A stretch of 64,000 nucleotides of DNA. Source: Antedon mediterranea (taxonomy: Eukaryota > Animalia > Echinodermata). The notes below the pieces were generated by a model. The model had not been told where the DNA came from and did not search any database. It worked only from the letters and a program-made list of their open reading frames with translations. A program made the position numbers and the translations under genes. Below, in pieces: positions 27,201 through 64,000 of the stretch. Numbering within the stretch: position 1 is the stretch's first letter; every line of letters starts with the position of its first letter. Where the stretch lies: contig NC_092676.1 in assembly GCF_964355755.1 (NCBI RefSeq), positions 8,223,888 to 8,287,887 of the forward strand, in the 5' to 3' direction.

Positions 27201-30200
27201 TACCCATCCCAATTGTCACTCATATTATTTCATGCTAAAAGAACAAATTAGACTAAATAACAGTGTACATTTTTAATTCATGACAAGTTAAATCTCGCTC
27301 ATCTTGAGCTAACACCTGGTGTGTTCTATATGTCAACAATACACTATACACTTTACTGTACAGTAGTTGGATAGAATGCCAAAGACTTCTTAATATCTTT
27401 ATGTGCTCTAAAATATTGATTACTATACAAACTATATATTATTATTTATGATGTATCAAGTTTGTTTGATGTCATAGTAACAAAATCACAATAATCCTCA
27501 AGGTTTAATTACTACACTTTTCAATTTATTAAATTCTATTTAAATATATGAAAAAAAATGTTACTATATTATTAGTATTTGATGATTAATTGACTGACAC
27601 GTAGTACAGTAGTAGTAATGTAGTTATTCAGCATATTCTTAATTTTTCAATAATTGATATTCTGAAATATTTCTGCTGGTAATGGTATTGTGATTCTACT
27701 GTTTTGTATATCTATTCCTTTGTATTTGCCTTACGTAAATTGTCAACTATTATTTATAAATTAATATTTTTAAGTTTTAATTAATACAGACAAAAAAATC
27801 TGGAAAACGTGTATTTGTTTTGGTATGTACTATTTATATTTATATAACACCTATATAAATTCCTGTCATTTGATTGGACGAATGTGGGTCACATGGCGTG
27901 CAATAGTACGCACTATTCAACGATCGTTAAATAGTACTTTTTGAAACATTTTTGTGTACGAAAAAAAAACGTCTAGATGTTATATAAAACAAATAATGAA
28001 TGTTTTGTATTCGTGTAATGGTACAAATAATGGCACTTGGTGAATGATGAAAGGTTATATCAACTCGGCTTTGCCTCGTTGATATAACCTTTCATCATTC
28101 ACCTCGTGCCATTATTTGTACCATTGCACTCATAAACATTCATTATTTGTATAATATACTATATTACATTTTAATATATAACAGATTTTTTAATACTATC
28201 TGACTGTGGCCATCATTTTTTTCATAATTTATAGAACAAAATGAAACTTGTGTGTGTGATCACCTCTTGAAACACAAAGTAACTTTTAATATTTTCTTTG
28301 TTATAATAGATTCCTTTAAAGAAATTGTACTTGATACATTTTACTTATTAAAACTAATCACATGTGTGATGTTCATAGCCGTAGAAATGAAACATTGAAT
28401 ATACAGTACATAACATTTAATGTTGATAAAAACCTTTTAACACTACTTTATCTGCTATGTTCTATAGTCTAGTGGAAAAAATGTATTTGGTTTTTTTAAT
28501 ATACGGCTAAATTTTGAAAAAAACCAACTAATATCATTTTTTTTTAACTGAGTGAAGAAAAATATGTTCTATGATTCTGTTGTAAAATGCAATTCATTTT
28601 TTTAAATACTATACTTTAAAAAGACAGTATGTAATTCTAAAAATAACTTGTATCCTTAAAAAAAGGAACCACACTCTATGCAACATATTATTGAATAAAA
28701 TTGGCAAATTTAATTTATGGTGTTAAAGATATATTGTCCGCCCAAAACATGAAAAATGAAGATTAATAAAATCTGACGTTGAATAGGTTATTTTATAGTT
28801 TTAACAAAGTTAAATGTTTTCACATGTAAAAAGACAAAATAAACAGTTAAATTCAACAACAAAAACCTATTGGCAGCCAATTTGACTATTTTTTTCCTTT
28901 TGATTATTGTTTTTTTTTCAGGTAAATTATGTGTTTTTAGAATAAATATTATGTGACATTAAAATGGCATATTCAACGAAAAAATGTTTAAAAATTATTT
29001 TTTGTGGGTAACAATACTTTAATTATTATAATTTACAGTAAATTCTGAAACATAAATTACACAAACCAACAGTGGTGTTGGTAGTCTATGAGTGCCGCTT
29101 ACCTGGATAAACCAACATAAGCCTCTCTCTCCGACGAGAGGTAAACATTACGAAAAGAAGAACATTAATAACATTAATTTTTCCCCACCCCCGTCGGATA
29201 ATGGATCAGTCCGCCACCAGTACGCCCTCAAGTGAGACACACCCACTTATCATCGTCATCATTTCTCAAGACCACCTGCCTGAGGGGACGGTAGGGAGGG
29301 CGTTTATCCAGGTAAGCGGCACTCATAGACTACCAACACCACTGTTGGTTTGTGTAGTCTATATCGTGCCTAGCTTACCTGGATAAACCAACATAAGCCA
29401 GTGTAGCACCGGACTAGAGTCTAGTCGGAGGCGGGAGGCAAGGTAAACATTGTCATACGTACCTAGTGCCTGGGCTTCAAGATTGAAGCTGCCACCGTAG
29501 ACTGGTTTGCGGAGGTATCCGACAGGTAGTGGGATGTGAAGGTGGACTGTGATCGCCACCATGCCGCTTGCAAGATGTCTGGAAGGGGCACCCCAGCAAA
29601 CAGCGCCCATGAAGCGGCTATGCCACGCACTTGGTGCATATGTGCCGGAGGAGGCGTATTTGTGGAGTCGTAACCAGCCCGGATGGCTGCCACGACCCAG
29701 TTTGCCAGCGTCGACCGAGCAGCCGGTCGGAAGGGTGCAACAGTCGATACGAACAGATGTGACGCTGAGACCCGAATGGACTCTGTGCGTTTGATGTAAA
29801 ACTTTAGTGCCCGCACTGGGCACCAAAATCTGTCTTCCTCAACCCCTGAACATGCAGCAATGGTGGGAATGAACGCATTCGTTGGAACCACTTTGTGTAG
29901 AGAGTCTGATCTTGGGCGGTATGCTGCCAGAAGGTGCAGATGTAGAGGCCGCATCCTTAACCGGCAGAACGGAACGAGGGCGACGAAGCTGGCCAGTGAC
30001 CCCAAGGTGCGTAGCCAGTCGTACGCCGTCGGAGCCTGAGCATTGATAAGATGTAGCACTGCAGTTCTTGCCTTGGCCACACGCTCGATGGATGGGCACG
30101 CACGGCCCGTAACCAAATTTATTTGGGCTCCGAGATACAGAGGGTTCTGAGAAGGGAGAAGAATAGAGCAAGAAAACGAAGCTAAGTGTAGTAGATCGTA

Positions 30201-33200
30201 ATGTTTACCTCTCGTCGGAGAGAGAGGCTTATGTTGGTTTATCCAGGTAAGCTAGGCACGATATAGACTTTAGTATTGTGAAGGTATTTATGTGTGTGTA
30301 GTTCCATGCCAGTTCAGATATATCATTTTGTTATTGAACCTCCATGGTTGCTTAGTGAGTTGCTATGGAAATTAACAGTTGCTTGAACTTTGGTCAAAAT
30401 CAATTACTCATGTGGGTATATTATACAACCAACAGTTATCTCAGTTACGTTGAGTGTATATTTAATAAACTCTACATGAATATCACACTTTGAATACAGT
30501 TAATTGTTTACAAAATACTATTATTCTATTTACAGTACTTTTGTTTTGGCAACAATCACTTAGTTTTTCTATGGGTTGAACCAAAAGATAGCTTAACGGC
30601 ATTTAAATTTAAATCATTTGTTTTACTGAATATTTTATAGTTTTGCTGGTCTAAATGAATTCCTATCTTTCAGTGCTTTACATCCATTTATGTTTTCAAA
30701 CCAAATTTGAACAAATGCCAAATATTCCAGTTCTGAATTTTTAATTTAAAATTAATATCACAATTATAATTTTGGACTTAAGACAACAAAATAGACAATT
30801 AATGATAATGAAATATTCACCATTCAGTATTCACCAAAAAGTACAAAACAAGTTAACTGGTTGAAGGTTGAAAATCTTCATTAAAAATATTCTGCCTAAA
30901 ATCCTTTGCCATTTTACTTGATCTCTGTTCTACAGTAATTCTCATGAATTCTTCTACTCTCATTGATGTCATCCACCATCATCAAAGCTTTGCGTAGCCT
31001 GTACGCCTTGCGCAGCCTACGCCTTGCGTGTGAACTAGACAGTGGCGTTATTAACGCAACTCACTACGTCACGTCCTTGGCGTTATTAATGACAGCTATA
31101 TACCCATCTTAACTAACGCCACGGACCTAACTCCAGTGATGCTTGAATAATTTTTACCTTAAGATAGTTACCTAAACTTGTTTGTGTTATATGTATTTTA
31201 CTATATGTATTTTTAAACGATACTTGGACAGTTTCGTTTTTTAAAGCCATTTATTAATATACGAAAACACCGTACGTGTGAACAACTTGGCATTTTAATC
31301 CATGGCTTAGCATTGGCATAAGTCATGCCAGTCTTATTATGCCGTACATGTGAACGTACCCTTAATCTTTTTTTCTCTTGGAACCTTCCCTTCCATTCAT
31401 CATTCCAATACTTTAAGTAAAACACACATGTCTCAGAATATATCTATGCCATTAGTTTCTTTTCTTGGTTACAATTAATGGCTTTTTTGTTCAATTGATG
31501 ACGTTCAAAGAGCTCCACATTGGTCAACTTATCTGTTTATTTTAAGTTCTGTCTACACTTTCAAACTTGATGTGCTCATAATAATATGGAACTGATGTCA
31601 TATCATTACCTAATTTGGGCATACATATTTTTTGTCAAATTTGATAGTGCAGATAGAGCTTTACAATAGACAGCGTTAGTTATACTGTTGCTACAATATA
31701 CAGTACTACACTATAACTACTACAAATAAGTGTGATATTTATAATTATATTAGTTTAGTATTAAACAATTACCTGACAAACTGTAATCAAGTTAACAGAA
31801 ACATTATTTTTTTAATTTACTGGTTAAATTTAACAGTTTTAAAATTTTCTTTTTTTTTTACAACACAATCCCCTTTTTCAGGAAAACTGAATAACTTTGA
31901 TAATAAATCTACAAAATGACCTACAGTATTCAAAGTTTGATTTTATTATTAAAGCTCATGTACAAGCATGAATTTTAAATATAATATCTGGTTAATTGTA
32001 TATAAATCAAATATTTGTAACTGAAATCAAGACGAAAAAACATGAATTTCTCTTAATTTGGTCAAATACAAAATTTGGCAAAATTCTGCCATAAAAACCA
32101 GGAAGACTTTTTTTCAGTAGTTAGGTAGTTTAACCTAATGTAATAACATGTCTGGTGACTCCCTAGAAGGTGAAAAAAGATGGTGGATATACGGTGGATA
32201 ATTTTTGCTATAGCATGTAAATAAAAATCTGAATTTGAAAAAAAAGGCCGCACCTAGCCTTTAAATCTTTATTTTTCATGTTTTAGGGAACAAAAATAAT
32301 CATTCTTTCTTATTAATAAGAACATAAATAAGAAAGAAATATAAGATTTATTACATTAACATAGAATTAATTACATTGCTTAACAAATCCTGTTACACTT
32401 TCAACAGATACTAAATTGATATTAATTATCCTATTAAAATAATGCAATATACATGTAACATAAGGACGCTATTGAAGTTGAAACAGACGATGATACGACC
32501 TAATGAAGCAGATGATTCCTAAAACACAAAAGGTGCTTTATAATGAAGAGAGTTGTGTAATGCAGTAAAATCAATACATATTGTACAGCATAACTAAGAA
32601 AATATTGAACTTCTCCATAGACAGAATTAAATGAGCAAATAGTTGTATTCTTAAATAATTACCTGCATGATTTACTACCTTAATGACAGCTTACTGTATG
32701 TAAGTCAATTTGGTATTTTAGGGAAAACATGAAATTATAGTAACTAAGGTTTCTATGTTGTCTATAGTATAGTATAGTATATATAGTACAGCCATCAAAA
32801 AATCTGTCGTATAGTATACGAGAGCTTTTTAGATGGCTGGTGCTAAATATAATTAAAATTAAAAATAACTTTCTAAGCATGGAGTAAGATATATTTTTAG
32901 ATACAGAGTATATATATATATGATTAGTAAAACTAAATATTTAAGGAGAAAATGTTGTAATGTATATTACAGTAAAGATGTATTGTCCCCACAAAAACAT
33001 GAAAAATGAAGTATTAATACCCATCAGATTTTTTAACAAAGAAAGAAAAAACAGTGTCTTCACTTATAAAATTCAACAGAAATTCATTCTATTTTTTTGC
33101 ATTAAATTTCATTTCCTCAGGTAAATAATTTTTTTGTTATGTTGAATTTTTTTTATCAAAGTGAATAATTTAATATTATGGAACATCAAAATGGCCTATT

Positions 33201-40726: not shown

Positions 40727-40762
40727 GTTAGTTTTATTATTAGCAATTTTTTTTTAGACATA

Positions 40763-41571
40763 CCGTATATTTCGGTGTATAAGTCGCACCTGTGTATAAG
40801 ACGCACCCCTAACTGAGAGTAAAATATCGGTATTTTTTATATCGTCGGTGTATAAGACGCGCCTTATATTTCATCAAAACAATGTTTTTTTAAATTGTAA
40901 TCAATATTATTGTAATAATATATTTTGTTATATCTGCAACGGCGTCCTTTATTTAGGTTTTTTCTTACCTAGGCTCGGCCGCGCCAAGCCTCAACAGCCG
41001 CAACATCGAGTGCATGACCGTGAGTGTAACACGTACGACGTGTGGGCTAGCCTCGCTCGATCATTTCGAGAGGGCGCACGTTTTCACGGACAATCGTATT
41101 CGATTAGTATCTATGTATCCGAGAAGTGTGTACGCTAGGTCCATGCTATAATCACCTGGAGAATATACTAGTCGAATACCGTACACCATGTGGCCGCCAA
41201 GAAGGGCTTGCGCTGGGGGTACGGCGATCGTGCGTATAACTACTGTATAAATAAATACTATTCCAATCGTACGTAAACGTTTACAAATGAAATTTTATCG
41301 CCATAATGAACAAATCTTTTCATCATATTTAGTATAACATCATGCTAAAATGCCTTGAAAACTAGGCAGAAGCAGGTTGCCGTTACGTTAATTAGTTACT
41401 GTAGCTAGGCCTAGCCTGCTCAGGCCTAGCAAACGAGGTGACGATAGCCTAGGCCTAGGCCTATGTACAATCTGTGTGGTGAGGCATTTATGTTCGGTGT
41501 ATAAGACGCACCCTTAATTTAGAGGTCAAATTTGCGTGTCAAAAGTGCGACTTATACACCGAAATATACGG
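40763..41571. mobile_element. Tc1/mariner-pogo superfamily MITE (~810 bp)
   Basis: Perfect TIR CCGTATATTTCGGTGTATAAGTCGCAC, TA TSD; second copy at 56580-57361. Confidence 0.9.
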
Positions 41572-41623
41572 TAGAGTAAGATGCTTACAGTAGCAAAGTT
41601 ATTTTATTTTCTTCATTTATTAA

Positions 41624-42149: not shown

Positions 42150-43630
42150 TGTAGAGTTTGCGCAATGAATAATTAAATCACATTGTTTTAAATGGAATCT
42201 GTACAACTGCCGGTTGACGCATCTTGCACTTAAACATATAGACAATTGTGTAAGATAAGAATTGGCTGATGAGTTTATAGGGATGATGAATGTCCAAACA
42301 TATATTTCATCAGGAATCGTCATCCAACCCATCGTAGAACTAATTGCCATTACTATTATCGAGCTCAGTGAAAACGATCAACCCTAGTTTTTTTGCCATT
42401 TTTAATTGTTCTATTCTTCTCTGTGTTCTGTTGACAGAACGGACAAGAAGATTACAAGGTACCTCACTGTAATTGCAATGAACCCAATGTCGTTAAGTAC
42501 AATAAATATGGCGAATGCATACTCTCAGCCTTGCCAATGACTTTTGCCAGAGGTAGTGCAAGGTACACTCTCTTTGCCATAGTTATTATTCCTAAAATAT
42601 GAAATATTGATAAAGTTTTAGTTCATTTGCTGCTAATGGTGGACAACTCAGCACAATCCATCATAGTAGCCATGCAAAGCCGATAATGATTCTACATTTT
42701 GCACAATTGAAGCGTTTGGTACTAAATGGATTAATAATGTTAATAGCTCGATCAACATTCAGAAAAAATGAACACTGAGCACTGTCCAGAGAGAGTAGAA
42801 ATAGTCCCTGCAAAACTGCAAAGGAAACTGCTTTTCCAATCTCTTGCCATTTTTGCGTACTGTCCATGATAATGTATAACTGCATTCTGCAAGATTAGTA
42901 ATGATTGTGGTTTGGACCTTATTGACATTGTTACCTTTTTAAACTTTTGTGATATGATGACAATCAAATTGCCAATGACATGCCAATGATCATCATTAAT
43001 ACACGGAGAACTTTGCTTTTTAGCAAGTCTTCACATGATGCAAAGGCATCAACGGGTTCGCAGTTCGCAATGACACCAACAACGCAACAGAGACAAGAGA
43101 AATCGGAGTACCTATGAGAGTAAAGTAAATGAATATGAATAGTTTTTTTTTTTTCGGAGGCCCAAATTGTTAACTATCGATCCCAAAAAGAATGAGTAAA
43201 AGTTTAGAATATTCAATGATTTTGAAGTACATTTATTTGATGCTTTCGCATAAATTATGAATACTAAACTACTATCTGTGTAGTATTGTAGCATAATTAC
43301 ACAGAGAGTATAAACATGCCATAGAATGTAACATAGCGGAATTATTATTATACTATTTATTTTAATATAACTATTTAAATTGAACATAATAAAAACATTT
43401 ACCATATTCAAATTATGACATGTAATTTACTTAAGTAAAACTCCGACATGTGTGACATTCAATAAAATGGCTTACTGTACATACAGCAATAAGAATAAAA
43501 CAGTAGCTGCATAATTTTGTATGAACATCTATCATACTTATATCATACTTACAATTCTTTTAAATGTGTCAGTTGTTCAAAAGTTTTATCTCTGTATTTC
43601 CATAAGTTGTTGTTCTCGTTTAACCATCTA
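42150..43630 (-). pseudogene. GRL101/LGR-type LRR-GPCR pseudogene, copy 1
   Basis: LRR exon WLNENNNLWKYRDKTFEQLTHLKEL (~43552-43627). The hinge+7TM exon from 43111 reads YSDFSCLCCVVGVIANCEPVDAFASCEDLL...WQG*EYAFAIFIVLN...IPDEIYVWTFIIPINSSAN, with multiple stops and frameshifts. The 5' extent is uncertain (possibly to ~45640). Confidence 0.85.
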
Positions 43631-46789: not shown

Positions 46790-49700
46790 AATAATTAAAT
46801 CACATTGTATTAAGTGGAATCTGTTCAACTGCCAGTTGACGCACTTTGCACTTAAACATATCGACAATTGTGTAAAGATAAGTATTGTCTGAGAGGTTCA
46901 TAGAAATGATCGATGTCGCTGCCCAAACATATCATCAGGAATCCTCATCCAATCCATCTCAGAACCAATTACCATTACAATTATCCGGAACCAGCATCAT
47001 CATCATCTTCATCATCCACCCTGGTTTTCTTTTTATATTTATTTGATCTTGTCGTTTCATATTCCGTTGAGAGTTGTCCATCATTTCTTATTGGACACGA
47101 ATGCTTTGAGGTAACACACTGCAATTACAATAAACCCAATGCTGTTAAATACAATAGAAATTACAATAAAATCATCCTTTTCAGGGACTTCAGAGGCAGT
47201 GCAATCTTTATATTGCCTAGTCATAATAATTATCTCCAAAATATTATGTGTACAGATTCTCTTAATATTTTTTTTTTTAATTAATTAATTCATTTTTTTG
47301 AATATTGTGTTTACTTTTATGTACGGTATGTTTTGGACTTTTGAAAATATTAAATAGGTCAAGTGTTATAATGTTCTTAAAGCTATAGTTAATTATTTGC
47401 CGTAGATGCAAACAAATGTTTGTGGAACTAGGGTGGTAAATTAGGTCAATGGTCATCGATCCATACCAAAATATTGAGGAAAAACCTCCTACAAGCCACA
47501 TTTTAAACCAAATCTCCACCATCAACTAGAGGTTTGGATTTCTGTATACATTTCATTTTAAGATAGTATTCATACATTTTAACGTTAAAATTGGACACCA
47601 TATCGACTCAATTTATCAACTACTATGAGAAGTACAGTAGTTATTAAAGTAAGCTTCGGCTAATTTTAATCGTCATAACACAACTCCAAGTAACAAAACC
47701 CGTTAATTGTGTGTGTTAATAGGCATTTGTGTGTGTTATATAGGCCAAAATTTAAAAGTGGCATAAACATTTTGGTGGGGGGGGGGGGGATTTTTTTTCT
47801 AACATTGTATATGGTATACTCTATCAGAAAAACCAAAATAAAATTTTCCTATACTTTCTTTCCGCAAATGTGTATATTAACTGTTCTGAACCCAGGCTAC
47901 TAGGTTAATTATGTCTTGCCCATTTTCACTCCACCATGGGTGAGCCACTTGATGGGGATTCTTTGCTTTTTACTAAAACCGTTGTGTGGATTTTGTTTTT
48001 CCTGGACAAAATAAATAAAATGAAAAGAATAAAAATCTATACTTCTCTTGTTTGTTCATCTTTACATGATGGTTGACAGTAATCAATAACGCCTACGAGG
48101 CAACACAGTCTTGAACAATCTGAAGACCTATGAGAGCAAAAGTAAAGACATAGCAAATGAATGTGAATGATTTTTAGTTTCATTTTAACAGTATAAAACT
48201 TGAAGAAAATTTACTATTGTTTGCATACTTGTCGATCATAAAGATGGTGTAGAATATTCAAAGATTTTGAAGGTACATTTAATTGATAACTATTCTGAAT
48301 ATCAAAATATTATGTGTAGTGTTATATATAATATAAATACACAAAGAATAAGAACATACTATCATGAACTATAACATTTAATCGGAATTACTTATTAATT
48401 TTAATATGTTTATTTTAAATTGAACATAATCTAACATTCAAATTATTAATGTAGATTATTTGACATGATTACTGATAACAGCATGCTAAAAATAAAAACT
48501 GACAAATTCAATGACAAAATTGAAACTGGTTAAACAACAGTGCCAACATTGTTTTAAAAAAGGTTTTTAAACCTATTAAAATAGCTGAAAGTTTTTAATG
48601 CAAGTTGCCACTGACGTTTTAGACATAAATTGACAAATTATTATATGATAGAACACCAATAAACATACATGAATTAATTTAATTAACGGACCAATCAAAA
48701 GTGTCATGAGGTGTACTACAGTTGAAAATTGACCTCCTGAATGCAGTTGTACGAATTAAATGAAATTCAAATTCTTTTAAGAATTTAAAAATATTGATTT
48801 TCCTTGAAATAATAGGAAGAGTAACATTGTGTATGCACACCTGTCATATACTTACAAATGTGTTAAGTTGGTTAATTGTTCAAAAGTTTTATCTTCGTAA
48901 TAAAGTAAGCTGTTCCCATCTAAATCTCTAAATAATGACAATGATTAACTATAGTAAATTTTGAAACTATTAACATATCAAAATGAAGGGTTGTACAGGA
49001 TGTTAATAACCAAGAGGCTTTTGTACTATAGGATATCATCCTTGTGAAATAATGGGTGAAGCCAGAAGGAAAATTGGAATGAATATAATCAATGACAAAA
49101 GTACATTGTTGAATGTGTTTTCATTTATAAACTATTTAAACGTACCATTCTAGCGTTGCAATAAATTAAGTTAAGAATCTTGATGAAAACCTAATACATG
49201 TTTACACTTGTTTCTCGTTCAATTCTAGTTGCATTTACATTTCAGAGTAAATAACTAGCTTTGTAATCCTAATGACAACCTGCAGTTTAAATTATTCCTT
49301 AAATAGCTACTTCATGGCATGAGTTATTTAAATTATAAATCATATATTAATATTATGAACTTACAAACGTGAAAGTGATGAAGCAAAAGAAGAAAATGCA
49401 CCTGGTTCTATGGTAGTTATACCGTTTTCCTGTAAAAACCTGTTGGAAGATAAACGGTTTGTTTTTTAATCCTACAAAATTAATATATAATTATTATTCA
49501 ATTGATTTTAAACAAATCTGTGAAAACAGAGATTTACTATTAGACTGGTTATAATACAACAAACAGTGACGTCATTGGACATGAATTAAACAGTACACAT
49601 TGGATCATATAAGATAAAAAATAACTAAATTTGTAAAATCAATCAATAAGAATAATTATTATGTAAGCCAAATATTGAATGCTTTCACACCACAACTATT

Positions 49701-50353: not shown

Positions 50354-50605
50354 AGGGATATCAGTGCTGTCAAACTATCAAATACATTGGCTGGTCAGGG
50401 AACATTTTCGCCAGTGTAGCATAGCAAAAAGGTATACAAAACAACCTTATTGCTACACATTTTGAAAATTGTGTAGCAAAAAATACTATACAAAACTATG
50501 TTTTCCGACTTAAAAATCAGTTTGATTAGCAATATTGCTAAACAAAATTTTTAAATGAAAATTTTCCCTGCTGGTAATGTACTTATTTGGTTATAGCCCA
50601 AATGC
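50354..50605 (-). pseudogene. LRR cassette exon A (HLGYNQISTLPANVFDSLTALISL), disrupted by a MITE
   Basis: ttttaag acceptor, gtatgt donor; exactly 72 nt after removing the 175-bp insert and its 5-bp TSD. Confidence 0.88.
50396..50570. mobile_element. 175-bp MITE inserted into LRR exon A
   Basis: TIR CAGGGAA(C/A)ATTTTC, TSD CTGGT (50391-50395, 50571-50575), confirmed against uninterrupted paralogous exons. Confidence 0.85.
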
Positions 50606-51911
50606 CTTAAAAGTAAAAACAATGTACAGTAACAATTACATGCAAGCTGTATACAACTTTTATGTTTTACTTTCAGCCAATGAGACATTCTACATAGTAA
50701 ATGCTGATGAGTATACTTTAATTAGTATAAATAAACTATGTTAAAATAAGTAAAGTATTATTCTCATTTAAACACAATTTGTATAACAAATTCTAAATAT
50801 TTGTTATTTTAATATATCTCTTTAAATGAAGACCAATTTTCAATTATTTATATCTTAAAAAAGTGCATAATTTATTGATAATTGTTAAATATTTTACTAA
50901 AGGTTAGAGTCCAAATACCTTCAAAGTAAAAACAATATACCTTCAATTCAACAATGTACATTAAAAATTACAGTTTTCAAGCTGTTTAGAATCTCAACTT
51001 TTATTTTTCATACACATTTTGAATTATTTGTATAGTCTTTCAGTCAATGATAGGGACATTATCTACATAGTAAATGCTATTGAGTATACTTTAATTAAGG
51101 CTAAAATAAACTGTTAAAATAAGAAAGTGTTATTCTCATGAATGAACTCAATTTGTATGACAAATTATTTGTTATCTTAATGTATTTAATATAATAATTA
51201 AATCCCTTTAAATGAAGACCCAATATTATCAATAATATATTTGTATATTGTATGTATTGATCACATTATCTACATAGTAAATGCTATTGAGTATACTTTA
51301 ATTAAGCAAAAATAAACTATGTTAAGATAATTAGAATGTGTTATTGAACATAATTTGTATAACAAATAATAATGATAATTAATGCATATAACCTAATCAT
51401 AAACATTTATTTTTCATATACACTTTGATTTTTGTTATAGTCTTTCAGGGACACGATCTAAATAGTAAATGCTTATGAGCTTACATTAATTAGGCAAAAA
51501 TAAACTGTTAAAATATGAAAAATGTTATTCTCATAAACACAATTTCTTAATGTATTTAATAATTTAATAGTTAAATCTTTTTAAATGAATGTTAAAATAA
51601 TAAAGTGTTATTTTCATGAACACCATTTCTATAGCAAATTCTAAATATTTGTTTTCATTTAAACATATTTATTATTGATATTAATTAAATCTCTTTAATT
51701 AATGACCAATTAACGCTTATTACATTATAAAATTATAAAATGCATAATGTTTATTTTTATAAATGATATTTGTATTTATTTTGAAAAAAAAATTAAACAT
51801 AGAAATAAATAATTGCAAAATACTTAGGCCTACAGCTTTGTCAGTGTTGTCAAACTATCAAATACATAAAATTAAAAAAATTAAAGAAATTGACATGTTC
51901 AAAATACTTAC

Positions 51912-51983
51912 AGGTATTTCAGTGCTGTCAATCTATCAAATACATTGGCTGGCAATGTACTTATTTGGTTACCATCCAAACTC
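51912..51983 (-). CDS. Intact 72-nt LRR cassette exon C (SLDGNQISTLPANVFDRLTALKYL)
   Basis: tttttacttttaag acceptor, gtaagt donor, phase 2-2, one 24-aa LRR. Expression unknown. Confidence 0.85.
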
Positions 51984-53645
51984 CTTAAAAGTAAAAACAA
52001 TGTACAGTAACAATTACATGCAAGCTGTATATAACTTTTATGTTTTACTTTCAGCCAATGAGACATTATCTACATAGTAAATGCTGATGAGTATACTTTA
52101 ATTAGTATAAATAAACTATGTTAAAATAAGTAAAGTATTATTCTCATTAACACAATTTGTATAACAAATTCTAAATATTTGTTATTTTAATATATCTCTT
52201 TAAATCTCTTTAAATCTCTTTGAAGACCAATTTTCAATTATTTATATCTTAAAAAATTGAATAATTTATTGATAATTGTTAAATATTTTACTAAAGGTTA
52301 GAGTCCAAATACCTTCAATTCAACAATGTTCATTAAAAATTACACCATTCAAGCTGTTCAGAATCTCAACTTTTATTTTTCATACACCTTTTGAATTATT
52401 TGTATAGTTAAAAGTGAATTTTCATTTTTATGGACAAATAAAATTTCTTGAATCTTATTGGTGCTGGTTCAATATTTTATTAATTTATTTTCTTTATATT
52501 ATTTATAATTAATCAAACTATAATAATTTATATTAGATGACTACATTTATTTTTTAATTTAATTGTTATTTTTATATGTTGTAAATTCAACAATGCTAAC
52601 CTATTTGCAAGAAAGAAAGTTTAATGAGTAAAATGTAAACAACAATGTACAATAGAAAGTAGCTATTTGATGTCAAATTTACTTTTTTATAGTAAATTCT
52701 ATTTATTTGTTATATTATCATCATAATGTTTTTAATTATTATAATTATATAGGTATTATAACTCTGGACAATTCAGATATTAATAATGAATAATTTATTG
52801 ATAATGTTAAACATTTTACTACTGCCAAGTGGTTTTAAAATGTATACTGTATATATTGATTACATTATGAAATGATAACATTTTAAAAACAAATTAAACA
52901 AGGAAATTAATATGAGAAAGATACTTACAGGGATATCAGTGCTGTCAAACTATCAAATACATAGTTTAGTTAAGAGATAGGGACATTATATAAATAGTAA
53001 ATGCTGATGATACTTTAATTAGGCAAAAATAAACTAATTATTATAATTAAAGGTATTGTAACCCTGGACAATTCAGATATTAATAATGAATAATTTATTG
53101 ATAATGTTAAACATTTTACTACTGCCAAGTGGTTTTAAAATGTATACTGTATATATTGATTACATTATGAAATGATAACATTTTAAAAACAAATTAAACA
53201 AGGAAATTAATATGAGAAAGATACTTACAGGGATATCAGTGCTGTCAAACTATCAAATACGTAGTTTAGTTAAGGGATAGGGACATTATATAAATATTAA
53301 ATGCTGATGATACTTTAATTAGGCAAAAATAAACTGTTAAATTAAGAAAATGTTATTCTCATTAATACAATTGTTTTAGCAAATTCGAAAAATTTGTTAT
53401 CTTCTTTATTAATAAAATAATAATTATATATCTTTAAATAATGACCAATTAACAATTAAAATCTTTAAAAAATGAATAATTAATATTGATGGTTAATATT
53501 TTATTAAACCTAAGTTTAAAACAAGTATATACTGTATGTATTGATCACATTATGAAATTATACAATTAGGCAGTAATATGAATTATTTTATTATGTATTT
53601 TTACAAAAAATTAAACAAAGAAATTGATATGAGCAAAATACTTAC

Positions 53646-53717
53646 AGCCATGCCAGTGCTGTCAAACTATCAAATACATTGGCTGGTAATGTACTTATTT
53701 GGTTACCACCCAAACTC
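53646..53717 (-). CDS. Intact 72-nt LRR cassette exon F (SLGGNQISTLPANVFDSLTALAWL)
   Basis: Same splice signals, phase 2-2, open frame. Confidence 0.85.
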
Positions 53718-54912
53718 CTTAAAAGTAAAAACAATGTACAGTAACAATTACAATATGCAAGCTGTATATAACTTTTATGTTTTACTTTCAGCCAATGAGA
53801 CATTATCTAAATAGTAAATGCTGATGAGTATACTTTAATTAGTATAAATAAACTATGTTAAAATTAGTAAAGTGTTATTCTCAATATCTTAAAAAATTGC
53901 ATAATTTATTGATAATTGTTAAATATTTTACTAAAGGTCCAAATACCTTCAATTCAACAATGTACATAAAAAATTACAGTATTCAAGCTGTTCAGAATCT
54001 CAACTTTTATTTTTCATACACATTTTGAATTATTTGTATAGTCTTTCAGTCAATGATAGGGACATTATCTACATAGTAAATGCTATTGAGTATACTTTAT
54101 TAAGGCTAAAATAAACTGTTAAATTAAGAAAATGTTATTCTCATGAATGAACACAATTTGTATGACAAATTATTTGTTATCTTAATGTATTAATATAATA
54201 ATTAAATCCCTTTAAATGAAGACCCATTATCAATAATATCTTTGTATATTGTATATATTGATCACATTATCTACATAGTAAATGCTATTGAGTATACTTT
54301 AATTAAGCAAAAATAAACTATATTAAAATAATTAGAATGTGTTATTGAACATAATATGTATAAAAAATAATAATGACAATTAATGCATATAACCTAATCA
54401 TAAACATTTATTTTTCATATACATTTTGATTTTTTTTATAGTCTTTCAGGGACACTATCTAAATAGTAAATGCTGATGAGCTTACATTAATTAGGCAAAA
54501 ATAAACTGTTAAAATATGAAAAATGTTATTCTCATAAACACAATTTCTTAATGTATTTAATAATTTAATAGTTAAATCTTTTTAAATGAATGTTAAAATA
54601 ATAAAGTGTTATTTTCATGAACACCATTTCTATAGCAAATTCTAAATATTTGTTTTCATTTAAATGTATTTATTATTGATATTAATTAAATCTCTTTAAT
54701 TAATGACCAATTAACGCTTATTACATTATAAAATTATAAAATGCATAATGTTTATTTTTATAAATGATATTTGTATTTATTTTGAAAAAAAAATTAAACA
54801 TAGAAATAAATAGTTGCAAAATACTTAGGCCTACAGCTTTGTCAGTGTTGTCAAACTATCAAATACGTAAAATTAAAAAAATTAAAGAAATTGACATGTT
54901 CAAAATACTTAC

Positions 54913-54984
54913 AGGTATGTCAGTGCTGTCAATCTATCAAATACATTGGCTGGCAATGTACTTATTTGGTTACCACCCAAATCC
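54913..54984 (-). CDS. Intact 72-nt LRR cassette exon H (DLGGNQISTLPANVFDRLTALTYL)
   Basis: Same splice signals, phase 2-2, open frame. Confidence 0.85.
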
Positions 54985-55123
54985 CTTAAAAGTAAAAACA
55001 ATGTACAGTAACAATTACAATATACAAGCTGTATACAACTTTGTTTTACTTTTAGCCAATGAGACATTATCTACATAGTAAATGCTGATGAGTATACTTT
55101 AATTAGTATAAATAAACTATGTT

Positions 55124-55685
55124 TAAGGGCCCATATATTTACCTACCGTATGTGTTAAACCAAGGGCTCATAAATTTACCTACAGTACTTGTGTTAAACC
55201 AAACTCTGGCAGACTGAGAGATTGGGATGTTTCATTCATCGCAAATCAATAGATTTGTATAATCGTATATTAAATCTATCAAAATAGTATTTTTTAAAGA
55301 AAATCGGCCTGTCTTCAACATTATGATGGTGTACTCTAGCTGTTCAACCGGTTTTCAGCTATTAAAAACAATTATCGTAGGAGGAGATAGGAAAATGCGA
55401 AGCCTCCTCGCATTTTTGTGGCGGGTATTTTTCAAGATGGACCATCCATTAGACAGTGTATACCAGGGTCGGAAAACACCCCTATTTGGGGCAAATCGTT
55501 GAACCTAAATTCGTTTTAATCGTCAATAACTAATTATCTAACTTAATTTAATTAGTAAATAGGGTTACATCAGGTGGTTAAAATCGGTACCGAAAGTACG
55601 AACCAACTTTATATACCATCGAGTAAAAATTATAGAAGTAAGGCGCGATTTACCGAATTTTGCCCTTACGTAAATTTATATATAG
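55124..55685. mobile_element. Unclassified ~560-bp insertion in the array
   Basis: Absent from paralogous monomers and flanked by a duplicated ATAAACTATGTT (12 bp). Confidence 0.6.
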
Positions 55686-56257
55686 ATAAACTATGTTAAA
55701 ATAAGTAAAGTATTATTCTCATTAACACAATTTGTATAACAAATTCTAAATATTTGTTATTTTAATATATCTCTTTAAATCTCTTTGAAGACCAATTTTC
55801 AATTATTTATATCTTAAAAAATTGAATAATTTATTGATAATTGTTAAATATTTTACTAAAGGTTAGAGTCCAAATACCTTCAATTCAACAATGTACATTA
55901 AAAATTACACCATTCAAGCTGTTCAGAATCTCAACTTTTATTTTTCATACACCTTTTGAATTATTTGTATAGTTAAAAGTGAATTTTCATTTTTATGGAC
56001 AAATAAAATTTCTTGAATCTTGAATCTTGAATCTTATTGGTGCTGGTTCAATTTTCTTTATATTATTTATAATTAATCAAACTATAATAATTTATATTAG
56101 ATGACTACATTTTTTTAAAATTTAACTGTTATTTGTATATGTTGCAAGAAAGAAAGTTTAATGAGTAAAATGTAAACAACAATGTACAATAGAAAGTAGC
56201 TATTTGATGTCAAATTTACTTTTTTATAGCAAATTCTATTTATTTGTTATATTATCA

Positions 56258-56326
56258 GGCCTAAAAAAAAAAATTGTTTGTTTGCTGTTAAGTTTTTTTT
56301 TTTGGTAGGGGGGGCGGGTGGAAAAA

Positions 56327-56360
<34 letters not shown>

Positions 56361-57558
56361 GTTAATTTCTCTGTTATTTGCTCGCGAATTTGAGAGTAAC
56401 AAAACACACTGAATAAAACTACGAGCTCAAACATCTATTCATAATTTGTTTCACATTTTAATTCTGTTTTGGGCGCGTTAGGCCCCGTGTCTAAACTAGC
56501 CTAGGCTAGTCCTACTACTACACAGTAGGTCGTTGTTAGCAGGCCTCTAATTAAAAGAAGTTAGTTAGAAGTTAGTGTACCGTATATTTCGGTGTATAAG
56601 TCGCACCTGTGTATAATAAGACGCACCCGACCCCTAACTGAGAGTAAAATATCGGTATTTTGTATATCGTCGATGTATAAGACGGCCGCGCCCAGCCTCA
56701 ACAAGAAGGGAAGTCCCCCATTCCGTCAGTTCTTTCTAACTTGTTATGAATGAGTTTCGCACCCGCAACATCGAGTGCATGACCGCACGTGTGTGTGGGC
56801 TAGCCTCGCTCGATCCTTTTATCGAGAGGCGCACGTTTTCACGGACAATCGTATTCGATTAGTATCTATGTATCCTAGAAGTGTACTGTGTACGCTAGGT
56901 CTATGCTATAATCAACTGGAGAATATACTAGTCGAATACTGTGTACACAATGTGGTTGCCAAGAAGGGCTCGCTCGCGCTGGGGGTACGACGGTCGTGCG
57001 TATAACTATAATACTATTCCAATATCGTAAACGTCGTTTTCAAATGAAATTTTATCGGAGCGCCTAAAACAGCTCCATAATGAACAAATCTTTTCATCAT
57101 ATTTAGTACAAAATCACGCTAAAATGCCTTGAAAACTAGCAGGTTGCTGTTACGCTAGTACACTGTAGCTAGGCTAGGCCTACTCTTTAGACTTTATTAA
57201 TACTAATAGGCCTATCTAGGCCTTACCTTAAAAAGCCCAGGCCTAGCCAACGAGGTGGCGATATCTGTGTTGAGGCATTTATGTTCGGTGTATAAGACGC
57301 ACCCTTAATTTAGAGGTTAAATTTGCGTGTCAAAAGTGCGATTATACACCGAAATATACGCTACGTTATTATTTTTATTGTTTCATCCTCGCACACTCGA
57401 TTTTTACACCTTTTCGGCCCAAAAAAATCATTAAAAAAACTTTTTTTTTTAAAGCGCCCTCAACGTAAAAAAAAAACTTTTTCTTATTTCCGCCCCAAAT
57501 TTTTGGCGAAATTAGGGGCGGCGGATGACAGCAAACAAACTATTTTTTTTTTTTGGCC
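56258..57558. mobile_element. PIF/Harbinger-like non-autonomous element containing a nested pogo-type MITE
   Basis: TIR GGCC-A-run-GTTTGTTTGCTGT, 3-bp TSD TCA confirmed against the empty site TATTATCATCATAATG at ~52711. Confidence 0.8.
56580..57361. mobile_element. Tc1/mariner-pogo superfamily MITE, second copy
   Basis: Same TIR and body as 40763-41571, TA flanks. Confidence 0.88.
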
Positions 57559-59103
57559 TCATCATAATGTTTTTAATATTATATTATAATTAAAGGTATA
57601 TTGTACCTCTGGATAATTCAGATATTAATAATGAATAATGTATTGATAATGTTAAACATTTTACTAATGCCAGGTGGTTTTAAAATGTATACTGTATATA
57701 TTGATTACATTATGAAATGATGGTTACCCCACAAATACCTTTAAAATGAAAACAATGTACAGTAGCAATTACATGCAAGCTGTATATAACTTTTATGTTT
57801 TACTTTCACAGCCAATGAGACATTATCTACATAGTAAATGCTGATGAGTATACTTTAATTCGTATAAATAAACTATGTTAAAATAAGTAAAGTATAATTC
57901 TCATTAACACAATTTGTATAACAAATTCTAAATATTTGTTATTTTAATATATCTCTTTAAATCTCTTTAAATGAAGACCAATTTTCAATTATTTATATCT
58001 TAAAAAATTGAATAATTTATTGATAATTGTTAAATATTTTACTAAAGATTAGAATCCAAATACCTTCAAAATAAAAATGTACATTAAAAATTACACCATT
58101 CAAGCTGTTTAGAATCTCAACTTTTATTTTTCATACACATTTTGAATTATTTGTATAGTCTTTCAGTCAATGATAGGAACATTATCTACATAGTAAATGC
58201 TATTTAGTATACTTTATTAAGGCTAAAATAAACTGTTAAATTAAGAAAATGTTATTCTCATGAATGAACACAATTTGTATGACAAATTATTTGTTATCTT
58301 AATGTATTTGATATAATAATTAAATTCCTTTAAATGAAGACCCAATATTATCAATAATATATTTGTATATAGTATGTATTGATCACATTATCTACATAGT
58401 AAATGCTATTGAGTATACTTTAATTAAGGCAAAAATAAACTGTTAAAATAATTAGAATGTGTTATTGAACATAATTTGTATAACAAATAATAATAATGCA
58501 TATAACCTAATCATAAACATTTATTTTTCATATACATTTTGATTTTTTTTATAGTCTTTCAGGGACACGATCTAAATAGTAAATGCTGATGAGCTTACAT
58601 TAATTAGGCAAAAATAAACTGTTAAAATATGAAAAATGTTATTCTCATAAACACAATTTCTTAATGTATTTAATAATTTAATAGTTAAATCTTTTTAAAT
58701 GAATGTTAAAATAATAAAGTGTTATTCTCATGAACACCATTTCTATAGCAAATTCTAAATATTTGTATTCATTTGAACGTATTTAATAATTATATTAATT
58801 AAATCTCTTTAATTAATGACCAATTAACACTTATTACATTATGAAATGATAAAATGCATAATGTTCAAAATTATATTTTTATTTATAAAAAAAAAAAAAT
58901 TAAACATAGAAATAAATAATTGCAAAATACTTAGGCCTACAGCTTTGTCAGTGTTGAAAAACTATCAAATACCATGGGCTGGCAATGCACTTTTTTTATG
59001 TTCATACAGGAATAACAGTGATATAGTAGTTGGGGTTAAGGTATAGAAAGTGTTAAAATGAGAAAGGGTCATAAGCAAATTGTAAATATTTGTTACATAT
59101 TAA

Positions 59104-62100
59104 GAGCCATTGTCTGTAAAAATCAAAGATTTGGTGGCAGATGTAAAAAAATGGATTTCTCTCAAATTTTTACCATGAATAGACATTTCAATAAAAAGCA
59201 TATCTACAACATTCATTTTAATTTTTAGCCTCCGTTGCCATGACAACGGTCAATTATCCAAATTTTGATGTTTTTGCCATTTTTCACAGATTTTCTATAG
59301 TGAAAAAGTACAAACTTGTATACTTATTTTAACCAAAAATACTTACAGTATACAGTTTTTGTTTATAGCAGTGTAAACAACATGTATTGAGTTCCATTTA
59401 ATGTAGAAAAAAAATAAATTACAAAATGGAGTTTGGTTGATACCATTATTTCAAAAAGGTGTGTTTTTGAAAAATATTTTTTTTATAAAAGTATACCTCA
59501 TAAACGTACCTATAACTTCCAAAGTGGTGTTTTTAAATCAATGAGGTTTTTTAATTTGATAGTCAATAGGTTTGTCAACAATAATCACAAAAAAAATACT
59601 GGGGTAAATTTTGTACATAGGTTTTGTGTTGCCAGGAAAATACAAAAAATACAAAAAATATAACAAAATATCAACAAACAAAACACATGAAACACAATTT
59701 AAATATGGCTAATCCAATAATAAAATGTATATGTGGCTTGTCATAATGCAACTAGAGTCATACGAATAGTTTAGATAAAATAGGAGAATGTGTTGCCAGG
59801 TTTATTTCAATTAATTGCCAGAAAAACAGTATTTTGCATTGAAATATTTAGTTGATGGAAAACAATGTTAAACTTGGAAATAATTGCGTCAATGGTTTTT
59901 ATAAATTTTTAAATCTATTTTGTGTAAAGAGATACAGAAAGACCTCCCAAAAATCTGACCTTGTAAATAGGTCATTTGAGGTCAAAAGGGGTCAGAATGC
60001 AAAACAGGACAGGTCCCCACTTTACTACAACTACAGTATTAATGTTTGATCAAAATTTACAAGATAGTTCATAACAATTTTCATAATTTACCTACAGTGT
60101 TACCTTAGCAACCATTTCTATGTGTAACTAAGGAAAGTAATTTTTTTTTAAACGTAAAAAATGGCGTTTTTATAAATACAAAGAATTGATTGCATTTGTA
60201 ATTTTTCTCAATTTTACTTCTACTGCATTCCATTAATGACAAACTTGACCTTGTAAATTCATTCATTTTGAGGTCAACATTTTACCATAGTAACTGTTTC
60301 TATGCGAAAATTTCAAAAAAATAAGGCGTTTTTCATAAATACAAAACATTTTTTCTACATAGTTTTACGTTTCTACTTTTTGCCAAATTTACTTTAAATA
60401 CTGAATCCTAATAATCTCAGAAAGAAAGTCTTGACGAATCTGAATAAAGGTTAAAAAAAATGACCTTTAGTGTTATCTTAAACCTGTTTATGTAACAAAT
60501 GATATTAAAAAAAAAAAAATTAAATATGGAGTTTCATGAAAAAAAAAAAATTACATATTGAGGTCAAATGACATCAACATTTTACCTATAGTGTATTGTA
60601 GCAACTGTTTCTATACGTAACTAAGTACAATATTTTTAATATGGGGTTTCATGACTACAAACAATTGATTACATAGCTTTACTACCTTTTCCCAAATTTA
60701 CTTATCTACTGTGAATCCCAGAAAATGTCTGACCTTGTGAAAGGGTCATTTGTTGGGTCAAGTTATGTCAAAATGTATTATTTATGTTATCTTAGAACCT
60801 GTTTCTATGCATAACTAAGGATAATTGTTTTTTTAAATACAATTGAACCTCCCGTAAGTGACCTGGAAAAGTGGCGGCTTACGGGCGGTGACCCCTTACG
60901 GGAGGTTCTGCCGGTAAAGGGCCAAAATCACTTATTATGGCTATATACGATATTCTTAACGAAACGAGCCTCTCAATTTTCCAGCTAATTGTAGGCCTAT
61001 TATTATTTATAATCAGGTGGTTTAGTATTTTTTAGCATTTTCAGACAAATTAAAAAAAATGTTATCATATGAAAAATGGTCGGTCGAAATCTGTGTAGTT
61101 TTCTCATCTCTTCATAGTAATGTTTTTAAAACCTCTTCAAAATAAAGCTAATATATAAAGAAATACAATAAACATGCACCTCTAATTCATAAGTCCATGC
61201 AATAAGTATCACTTTTTCGATTGGCCGCTTACAAAAAATCTCATTTTTAGTATAAAAAGGTGCCCGCAGCTGCTTACGGTAAGCACCAAATGCACTAATT
61301 AGATAGGAAGAACAAACAGGCTTTTCAAAGTGCGTCCATTAAGGGAGGTGGCCGCTGTAAATAAAATATGGGGTTTTCATGAATAAAAATAATCACAGAA
61401 GAAAGTGCTTACGAATATGACCTTGTGAAACGGTAATTTGAAAATGCAAATAAGGCATGCCTGCTAATAATCTACAAATTTAAATTTGTATGAGATAAAT
61501 ATGCAAAATCTAAAGAATATCTCATTTTTAGTTACCATAGTAACTGTTGCTATGCATAACTAAGGGAAATTTAATAATTATCAGATAATTATTAATTAAT
61601 AATTAATACTGAATCAAACCATCACAGTAAAAAAAATATAGAATTTAAAACCAATATTTAATAATAAAGTGTGATATTTTACATGCTGACCTTAAATGAA
61701 ATGAAATTTCAAACCAGGGCTTCAATATTTGTTATGTAGCATTAACATACCTGAGTATATCATTGACTTTTGATTGGCTCTATTTTGGGGAGGGGAAAGT
61801 GGTGGATCCAGGACTTTTAAATAGTTAGGGGGTTGAAGGCGAGGGTCTAAAAACTTAACTTTATGTCCTATCTTTTGCATTGCAATTTTTAACTTGGGTT
61901 GGGTGGGGGCTTGGAGAAAGGGGAGGGGGTGGGATGGAGGTGTTTGAATCCGTTTATTCATTGGGGCGATAGTAGCGGCAGTGTGGGTGGTGCTTGAATG
62001 CATGCATTTGACACTCTATAGTGGATGATCGACCAAAGTGTTGCAGTTTATCTTTCTGTGGTTATAGTCGGGATGGGGGGGGGGAGGGAGGGGTGGTAGT

Positions 62101-62992
62101 TGAAAGTGGTGGTGGATGGGCATGTGGGATCTGCTTAGGTTAGCAAATAAAAGAAGTAAACAAATGAAAGAGGAGCTTCAAAATAAGAGAGGAGTAATCT
62201 GTTGCAAAGACTAAAATTCACAACGATCTGATAATTTATTCAAATTTCCAGAGGATATAACCTATAAAATGACATTAAAACTGGAAATTACAGAATCTAT
62301 AATTAAAAATTAATTTTTTTTCTCACAACACAACTAGAACTATATAAAACATTAAGAATTTTTCTGACCAATGAGTTTCAAATCAAATAATCAAAGAAAA
62401 TAAAATGTTTTTACTAATATACCATGTTTTTTTTAATAAAAATGCCTATGTTTCTCGCAACACTGCTTGTAGATTTTAAATTTACCCCAGTATTTTATTT
62501 TAGAAATCAATTATTAAACATTAGAACTACCTATTTGTAATAAATCAGCTAATAAAATACACCACTTTGGGCGTTATGGTGAAGTAAAGTTTAGTTGCAT
62601 TGAACAATTAAAAAAAAGTGAAAAACACCCCTTTTTAAATAAATGGTATCTCCCAAAGTATGAAATAAAAAAAAATAAAAAAATTTGAAACAGGTACACA
62701 ATGCATTGTTATTATGCATACACTAATTATTTTTTATAATTAAATGAACATCACAAAAATATCGTTCATCAAAGTAGTACCAATATCCATTTTTAAAAAC
62801 CTTAAAAAAGGACAAAATTTGTCAAAAACACAAATTTTGCCGTTGCCATGGAAATATACGTGTGAAATAAAGAATACTTCATATTTGATTTCTCTCAACA
62901 CATATATAGCCATGTGCAAAATTTGAAAGAAATCCATTTTTTGAGTCTGCCACTCTTTTTGATATTTCTTTGATTCTTACAGACAATGGCTC
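59104..62992. mobile_element. 3.9-kb non-autonomous Kolobok-type DNA transposon
   Basis: TIR GAGCCATTGTCTGTAA(A/G)AATCAAAGA with extended subterminal similarity, TTAA TSD (59100-59103, 62993-62996), no transposase ORF. Confidence 0.82.
60840..61357. mobile_element. Tigger/pogo-like MITE remnant nested in the Kolobok-type element
   Basis: TA|CAATTGAACCTCCCGTAAG ... GGGAGGTGGCCGCTG|TA with GGCCGCTTACG subterminal motifs. Confidence 0.6.
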
Positions 62993-63253
62993 TTAAGTAT
63001 TTAATAATAATAATTAAATTTCTTTAAATGAAGACCAATTTTCAATTATTTTTATCTTTCAAAATTGAATAATTTATTGATAATTGTTAAATATTTTACT
63101 AATGCTAAGTGATTTTTAAAATATATACTGTATACTGTATGTTGATTAGATTATGAAATGATACAATGCATAATATGCATTGTTATCAATTATTTTATTA
63201 TCAATTTAAAAAAAAAAATTAAACAAAAAAATTGATGTGATCAAAATACTTAC

Positions 63254-63325
63254 AGTGTTGTCAGTGCTGTCAAACTATCAAATACATTGGCTGGCAATGT
63301 ACTTATTTGGTTATAGTGCAAACGC
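63254..63325 (-). CDS. Intact 72-nt LRR cassette exon K (RLHYNQISTLPANVFDSLTALTTL)
   Basis: ttttcacttttaag acceptor, gtaagt donor, phase 2-2, open frame. Confidence 0.85.
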
Positions 63326-64000
63326 CTTAAAAGTGAAAACAATGTACAGTAAAAATTACAATATGCAAGCTTTATACAACTTTGTTTTACTTTTAGCCAA
63401 TGAGACATTATCTACATAGTAAATGCTGATGAGTATACTTTAATTAGTATAAATAAACTATGTTAAAATAAGTAAAGTATTATTCTCATTAACACAATTT
63501 GTATAACAAATTCTAAATATTTGTTATTTTAATATATCTCTTTAAATCTCTTTAAATGAAGACCAATTTTCAATTATTTATATCTTAAAAAATTGCATAA
63601 TTTATTGATAATTGTTAAATATTTTACTAAAGGTTAGAGTCCAAATACCTTCAATTCAACAATGTACATTAAAAATTACAGTATTCAAGCTGTTCAGAAT
63701 CTCAACTTTTATTTTTCATACACATTTTGAATTATTTGTATAGTCTTTCAGTCAATGATAGGGACATTATCTACATAGTAAATGCTATTGAGTATACTTT
63801 AATTAAGCAAAAATAAACTATGTTAAAATAATTAGAATGTGTTATTGAACATAATTTGTATAACAAATAATAATGATAATGAATATAACCTAATCATAAA
63901 CATTTATTTTTCATATACATTTTGATTTTTTTTATAGTCTTTCAGGGACATTATCTAAATAGTAAATGCTGATGAGCTTACATTAATTAGGCAAAAATAA

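Follow-up and report, generated by a model that had tools for sequence, protein, structure and literature searches.

The minus strand of a 64,000-nucleotide stretch of the genome of the crinoid Antedon mediterranea (NC_092676.1, positions 8,223,888 to 8,287,887 of the forward strand; the whole stretch is called the window, and all coordinates refer to it) carries an array of short exons that each encode one leucine-rich repeat (LRR). These exons, here termed cassettes, were originally predicted to form a diversifiable LRR ectodomain resembling the variable lymphocyte receptors (VLRs) of jawless vertebrates. The array is probably the LRR ectodomain of a receptor gene in an expanded crinoid family of GRL101-like G-protein-coupled receptors (GPCRs), in which cassette variation is almost confined to the predicted binding face and likely arose from germline duplication, unequal crossing-over and diversifying selection, while the membrane part is broken at this locus.

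Organisation of the cassette array

Four cassettes are intact: E1 (63254..63325), E2 (54913..54984), E3 (53646..53717) and E4 (51912..51983), the last of which is a mosaic. Each lies where the original prediction had placed it, is 72 nt long, is preceded by AG and followed by GTAAGT, and is open in a phase 2-2 frame. A fifth cassette, E5 (50354..50605), retains its splice sites and is split by a 175-bp inverted-repeat element with a short target duplication. In total, the split exon is 180 bases longer than a normal cassette; the inserted sequence is inverted at its ends and accompanied by a short direct repeat, which measures 5 bp when the boundary is placed at those ends, in agreement with the proposed disruption by a miniature inverted-repeat transposable element. 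This element (50396-50570) has very high depth in DNA runs. A decayed cassette (58941..59012) carries the frameshift attributed to it and also lacks the AG acceptor. The partial copies, previously put at about ten, amount to 11: seven 5'-type fragments, consisting of an acceptor and about 17 exon-like bases, are spread over 50900..63648 (starts at 63648, 58063, 57738, 55877, 53946, 52312 and 50918), and four 3'-type half-cassettes, consisting of the last ~30 bases and a donor-like site, lie within 51834..54866 (near 54863, 53257, 52957 and 51862). All of these are on the minus strand.

A scan of both strands of the whole window for LRR-like exons of 66-78 nt between AG and GT returned seven candidates, namely the four intact cassettes, two further minus-strand exons downstream that had been missed before (49439-49365, 75 nt; 48927-48856, 72 nt), and one unrelated plus-strand sequence; no cassettes were found on the plus strand. 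The intact cassettes matched Pfam LRR_8 weakly (E 0.003-0.013, under the curated cut-off), as is expected because each spans just 23 residues. In a protein search with one cassette as query, none of the 31 candidates scored.

The GC content is 26% in the region and 40% in the cassette exons. The label of an AT-rich satellite had to be abandoned: Tandem Repeats Finder shows no more than a single 300-bp dimer and some short units, and the array consists of nested exon-plus-intron duplications of 0.3-1.3 kb with at most 97% identity, broken up by high-copy insertions. An insertion of ~3.9 kb within the array (59077..63021), with imperfect inverted ends and high depth in DNA runs, is likely a transposon. 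High-copy insertions in array introns are present at 55127-55680 and 56258-57540, and about 600 bases of the latter are common to 40761-41573. The 5' end of the array lies beyond the window, as had been stated, and the array continues past the window edge.

Downstream exons and the crinoid receptor family

The cassettes are followed on the minus strand by two single-copy, intact LRR exons, one of 75 nt (49365..49439), whose homologue in crinoid GRL101-like receptors is the penultimate LRR, and a last one of 72 nt (48856..48927). The start of a hinge and seven-transmembrane (7TM) exon then occupies 48037..48127; it encodes 29 residues with the cap cysteines at positions 8, 9, 17 and 21, has a 5-residue in-frame deletion and ends at a stop codon (48039-48037). 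The 7TM remnant of this copy, copy A, extends over 441 bases (46803..47243, minus strand) from the second extracellular loop to the C-terminus with five frameshifts and one stop, and no match was found for its transmembrane helices TM1-TM4. A tandem copy B on the same strand comprises a last LRR exon of 75 nt that is open (43553..43627) and a hinge/7TM exon with ten frameshifts and two stops (42181..43111), whose 7TM region is 82% identical to XP_071956163.1 across 296 aligned residues. With ten frameshifts at only 18% residue divergence from the intact paralog, small deletions are numerous relative to substitutions. In tblastn searches with 36 queries, both 7TM remnants scored best with XP_071956163.1 and its neighbours, and none of the 36 gave a further 7TM match in window positions 1-42000; the short 7TM pieces had no Pfam matches. 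The 3' partner of the array, which the original prediction had called unproven, is identifiable inside the window as the hinge/7TM exon, but it is broken there. The proposal of a modular invertebrate LRR ectodomain feeding an LRR-GPCR was borne out, as the array runs into a GRL101-like exon order.

Antedon models aligned to the window in the order cassettes, 75-nt exon, 72-nt exon, hinge and 7TM, followed by the second tandem copy. This exon order is common to the window and the models XP_071949331.1 and XP_071943925.1, and the terminal LRRs of the clade (25 and 24 residues) with the cysteine hinge after the cassettes are present in the window. The domain and exon order of the Antedon GRL101-like models XP_071956163.1, XP_071956026.1 and XP_071956189.1 is also that of the window, but the window copy lacks an intact 7TM. 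The window cassettes are identical to the repeats of XP_071956189.1 at 16-17 of 23 residues.

With a 76-residue query from the 7TM remnant, three proteins were obtained among 14 candidates, all of them 'GRL101-like' and from Antedon mediterranea, and a search with the 7TM region yielded 45 proteins among 2445 candidates. A distinct crinoid group was recovered, made up of 14 Antedon clusters (27 sequences, 8 contigs) and five Anneissia clusters (13 sequences) with 56-100% identity; its members are automatic RefSeq gene models. None of the 19 cluster representatives gave an LDLa Pfam match, many of the models being 5'-incomplete. A midpoint-rooted tree was calculated from 45 rows (20 of the 27 Antedon and 6 of the 13 Anneissia sequences and 19 others, with 14 short or near-duplicate models excluded and the window remnants themselves not among the rows). 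The Antedon (20) and Anneissia (6) models group on a single branch (support 100/97) beside two LDLa-bearing crinoid receptors, and the rows from Acanthaster, Limulus, Rhodnius and Strigamia form a separate branch, a placement that depends on the midpoint root and includes some badly trimmed outgroup rows. The best solved full-length structure match of an intact clade member was RXFP1 (E 6e-86). The window locus is a broken or truncated member of this crinoid clade, and it is not filed as a canonical GRL101.

The expansion of the family in crinoids is apparently undescribed, and no paper on a crinoid LRR-GPCR expansion was found in a literature search that left most subscription journals and supplements outside its range. 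A metagenome scan yielded nine distant loci with 29-54% identity, none of them from the crinoid clade. The loci L001 (212-3229) and L005 (1779-6308) have uninterrupted LRR-7TM frames of 1005 and 1509 codons, respectively, and in L005 a long run of alternating near-identical LRR pairs constitutes a parallel array in another animal.

On balance, with slightly better than even confidence, the window copy is most likely a dead gene that could still serve as a cassette donor. An assembly error behind the broken 7TM was rejected: the nearby frames of 1806 and 952 codons are open, and contigs from the DNA runs X1 and X5 bridge the lesions, where X1 may come from the source sample and the X5 contig was matched at the level of the junction. 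It is possible, though doubtful, that the copy is a living gene for a secreted or decoy LRR protein, its exons being spliced to the hinge and the product ending before the first membrane helix. One frame runs through seven exons with intact splice sites, the first stop is codon 175, 29 residues into the hinge exon, and the hinge cysteines are kept before it. The 237 coding bases between the array and this stop contain no stops or frameshifts, whereas about three would be expected in a dead gene, which counts against the dead-gene part of our interpretation, albeit with a marginal and post hoc P value (0.04-0.05). The same junction is bridged by X5 record 12 (47951-48263), which carries a second organism label, and truncated ectodomain splice forms are known for human RXFP1 (PMC7196478). 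A secreted product is, however, difficult to reconcile with a last cassette split by an insertion, one frameshifted cassette, 11 half-copies, the 5-residue deletion in the hinge and an adjacent copy B that is plainly dead; several RXFP1 truncations are, moreover, retained inside the cell (PMC7196478).

Variation and diversification of the cassettes

Among the five window copies, with the split E5 read without its insertion, codons 1, 3, 4, 22 and 23 all change residue, while the remainder of the exon shows one replacement and one silent site. In the established LRR structure, these variable codons are the x positions of the LxxLxLxxN motif. Variable nucleotides are found at 12 of the 16 positions in this binding-face class, compared with 2 of 56 in the other exon positions (Fisher p 9e-9) and 26 of 147 flanking intron columns (p 5e-6), one of the 16 being an invariant base from the split leucine codon, and the pattern having been noticed before the class was fixed. 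The pairwise difference is 0.45 for the binding face, 0.021 for the other exon positions and 0.030 for the upstream intron. In the AlphaFold model of XP_071956026.1, each strand is formed by residues 23-24 of one repeat and residue 1 of the next (predicted local distance difference test, pLDDT, ~90-98).

Related contigs aligned to one 151-base exon-plus-flank stretch numbered 165, 339, 250 and 351 in four DNA-like runs, which represent at most three samples and two studies. These numbers are far above what the window's six copies explain and suggest that cassettes may be present in dozens or more genome-wide. At least two alternative letters were observed at 7 of 15 binding-face places versus 1 of 57 others, and the non-reference share was 0.27-0.31 at the binding face versus 0.007-0.020 elsewhere. 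Variant rows were exonic in 36 of 40 cases, and codon 3 has all four letters at each place. Indels account for only six rows, each in at most two contigs per run among hundreds of contigs. The loose contig ends, read by eye, show other cassette types with the donor at the same place. In the intact paralog model XP_071956026.1, 11 different cassettes are present with an entropy of 1.87 bits at the binding face versus 0.13 bits (p 6e-5), and near-identical paralogs of this model (301-303 of 305 7TM residues) are modelled with two and no cassettes. A protein grouping with a scallop model shows a weaker pattern (1.49 vs 0.42 bits), and the design is therefore not unique to crinoids. The suggested diversification of the cassettes is thus evident in mosaic sequence and in binding-face variation in the window, the contigs and the intact paralog. 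The variation sits almost wholly on the face predicted to contact the ligand, which likely yields a varied recognition repertoire.

A model of how this variation arises would begin with the tandem duplication of exon-plus-intron units, seen directly in the array with the frame kept in all units. Exchange within the invariant core, presumably by crossing-over or conversion, would then join the 5' variable codons of one cassette to the 3' variable codons of another. Such a mosaic is present in E4, of which the upstream intron and 5' end are like E3/E5 and the 3' end and downstream intron are like E2. Informative sites group copies 1 and 2 against 3, 4 and 5, or 1, 2 and 3 against 4 and 5, upstream, 1 and 5 against 2, 3 and 4 in the 5' codons, and 1, 3 and 5 against 2 and 4 from base 52. 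The 18 informative two-state events support partitions that conflict with one another and are clustered (p about 1e-5), three three-state sites having been dropped and the downstream sites lying in T-rich sequence, where they are possibly not independent. Since the intron is predicted to cut each concave beta-strand, every strand would be a junction of two exons, so that an altered cassette number or order would make a new surface. Homogenisation may keep the scaffold, because its conservation does not exceed that of the upstream intron. The excess change at the five codons would need diversifying selection or the retention of old variants, and the 15- to 20-fold excess at binding-face codons may reflect selection for new ligands, most likely foreign molecules. 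Base changes among the variants are of many kinds and do not show a deaminase-only signature. Finally, this locus has lost its 7TM and would now be most likely a dead gene or cassette donor, or else the source of a secreted ectodomain. Our best reading is that an LRR-GPCR family is being diversified in the germline, through the duplication of exons and through unequal crossing-over.

Besides the lesion-free bases ahead of the stop, several points weigh against this interpretation. A test of selection after the last duplication, based on E2 versus E4 (p 4e-4), was withdrawn because it is confounded by mosaicism, the 5' end of E4 coming from another lineage. The five window cassettes are not mutually independent, contigs were aligned only at 80% likeness or more, which favours a conserved scaffold, and summed depth and contig counts differ from copy numbers. 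The cassette counts of the paralogs rest on automatic gene models, many of which are 5'-incomplete, and the 5' end of the array is outside the window. The ligand and the immune link are a proposal, and starfish GRL101-like genes have been discussed as chemosensory (PMC6267866).

Ligands, alternative explanations and known systems

It is rather unlikely that the family serves chemosensation, self or gamete recognition, or the perception of endogenous insulin-like peptides, and not the recognition of pathogens. The closest solved full-length relative is indeed the relaxin receptor RXFP1 (E 6e-86), GRL101 has been proposed as a receptor for insulin-like growth factor (bioRxiv 2021.04.15.440029), and it is enriched in starfish sensory tentacles (PMC6267866). 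However, crinoids were reported to have only three insulin-related peptide genes (bioRxiv 2021.04.15.440029), and hypervariable surfaces in dozens of genes would therefore not be driven by insulin-like peptides. In a snail, moreover, 12 GRL101-like genes are clustered in a region of schistosome resistance (PMC12297450). Roles in chemosensation or allorecognition may still apply.

VLRs carry an LRRCT domain, a stalk and a glycosylphosphatidylinositol (GPI) or short anchor. At the window, the array leads instead to the hinge of a leucine-rich-repeat-containing GPCR (LGR) and a 7TM remnant. The resemblance of the cassette consensus to the LRRV modules of VLRs was confirmed, in that a search of solved structures with the cassette profile gave VLRs and VLR-derived designs as its top matches (57 sequences to E 1). 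As the original prediction had cautioned, this likeness is that of the general typical-LRR class. A special tie to VLRs was not supported: the array is not a VLR, as its exons are spliced in line and precede a GPCR hinge. Agnathan VLRs and crinoid cassettes have in common the typical LRR of 24 residues, a very similar scaffold and variation on the concave face. In VLRs, however, somatic assembly by deaminase-driven gene conversion draws on cassettes that are incomplete in the germline (PMC13428168), whereas the crinoid cassettes have their own AG/GT sites, lie on the coding strand and continue in frame into the hinge. The claimed symmetry of the one-repeat exons, which can be skipped in frame, holds with phase 2-2 but is ordinary in LRR genes: human genes often contain one-LRR exons that preserve the frame (PMC6642158), and the LRR exons of gonadotropin receptors are in phase 2 (PMC11378527).

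A VLR-like anticipatory system, in which somatic recombination or combinatorial splicing in coelomocytes would give each cell a different receptor, is improbable. Such a system would fit the best matches of the cassette profile, the variation on the same face and the possibility to skip every cassette in frame, and the Anneissia RefSeq isoforms X1/X2 (XP_033096707.1 and XP_033096713.1; P0212 and P0208) differ by exactly one 24-residue repeat, which hints at exon skipping in the clade. Yet this isoform pair is at the level of models and comes from a gene with unlike repeats, the cassettes stand in line, unlike those of VLRs, which act as donors to a gene that is incomplete (PMC13428168), the variants comprise base changes other than C to T, and germline mosaicism accounts for the window. 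Equally improbable, in our view, is an antibody-like LRR repertoire on a GPCR scaffold, with dozens to hundreds of cassettes recombined and variably spliced, membrane forms signaling via G proteins and 7TM-less copies secreted, which would be a convergent VLRA/VLRB-like pair in an invertebrate deuterostome. Run X8, at first presumed to be RNA, was treated as DNA-like and as uninformative on expression: all 30 bins were covered, including introns and transposons, and none of the 15 joints listed (of 257) was of the splice type. Neutral junk, i.e. a dead LGR in which a unit of exon and intron multiplied in the manner of a satellite without selection on the repeats, is the least probable explanation: both 7TM copies are broken, half-copies and insertions are many, and the scaffold codons differ among copies about as little as the upstream intron does (0.021 vs 0.030), so that homogenisation alone would suffice for a frozen scaffold, but the confinement of change to five codons is left unexplained, the identical pattern is found in the intact paralog, and indels are rare (6 rows, at most 2 contigs per run).

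Further along the window, a large mucin-like gene on the minus strand (12452-23512) has a frame of 1806 codons, in which a Ser/Thr-rich unit of 120 bp recurs about 39 times, and a frame of 952 codons with 171-bp and 33-bp units. It also encodes two domains that are related to each other (30% identity), with a basic furin-like site after each of them, and only low-complexity matches were obtained in Pfam. Fusion of the array to this downstream gene as a VLR-type stalk was rejected, since the gene is 26 kb off and beyond two hinge exons; in the phase required, the mucin-like exon lacks a strong acceptor, its likely acceptors being in phase 0 or 1. An element of about 1.2 kb with inverted ends (29052-30269) contains a 262-codon frame, which resembles a remnant of a tyrosine-recombinase retrotransposon, and a 207-codon frame on the minus strand (3860-4483) resembles the C-terminal part of the reverse transcriptase of a long interspersed nuclear element; neither had a Pfam match at 0.01.

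Crinoids are the earliest-branching living echinoderms. In these animals, where a published survey saw only single-copy LGRs, there is apparently an undescribed, fast-diversifying receptor family, which is probably undercounted because annotation pipelines miss cassette exons. It seems that a hormone-receptor scaffold was converted into a recognition surface that varies, and that its repeat type and variable positions are as in jawless vertebrates. Whether arrays of one-repeat exons served as a germline step towards VLR-type diversity, or are a convergent alternative to it, thereby becomes open to testing. The finding worth pursuing is this family-level pattern of variation, beyond the single broken locus.

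In the LGR class scheme (PMC11863921; PMC4079206), among the closest known receptors are GRL101 of Lymnaea and its orthologues (type C2), which like the crinoid clade combine LRRs, a cysteine hinge and a rhodopsin-type 7TM. Canonical GRL101 differs by its many LDLa repeats, placed N-terminal to the LRRs, and was reported as single-copy in a survey of ambulacrarian LGRs, with one orthologue each 'despite extensive attempts' (bioRxiv 2021.04.15.440029); the crinoid clade gave no LDLa match in any of 19 representatives and has near-identical LRR cassettes in variable number. The Biomphalaria SudRes2 cluster resembles the crinoid family in its tandem GRL101-like genes and in haplotype differences in copy number and truncation, but its genes keep lectin and LDLa domains (PMC12297450). 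In octopus, LRRs occur in 5 of 22 adhesion GPCRs (PMC6408891).

The array itself is comparable to LRR arrays outside animals. Those of brown algal ROCO proteins and type II LRR-kinases likewise have 72-nt, one-LRR exons in phase 2, non-coding intronic copies, intragenic recombination and diversifying selection, and the register of the window cassettes is that of the algal type II (PMC3341825; PMC11378527). The algal genes differ in encoding cytoplasmic GTPases or kinases with a ROC-COR or kinase domain instead of a GPCR; ROCO loci contain exon copies on the non-coding strand, of which none was seen in the window, and shuffling was absent from the algal type II exons. Tetrahymena LRR arrays are also in phase 2, with unequal crossing-over and exon numbers that vary among close paralogs, but have 90-nt exons, thousands of genes, and another LRR class and other partners (PMC6564038). 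Shuffled LRR arrays together with dead copies and selection have been reported from both Ectocarpus (PMC3341825) and Tetrahymena (PMC6564038), and by analogy the window array appears to work like these known exon-shuffled arrays.

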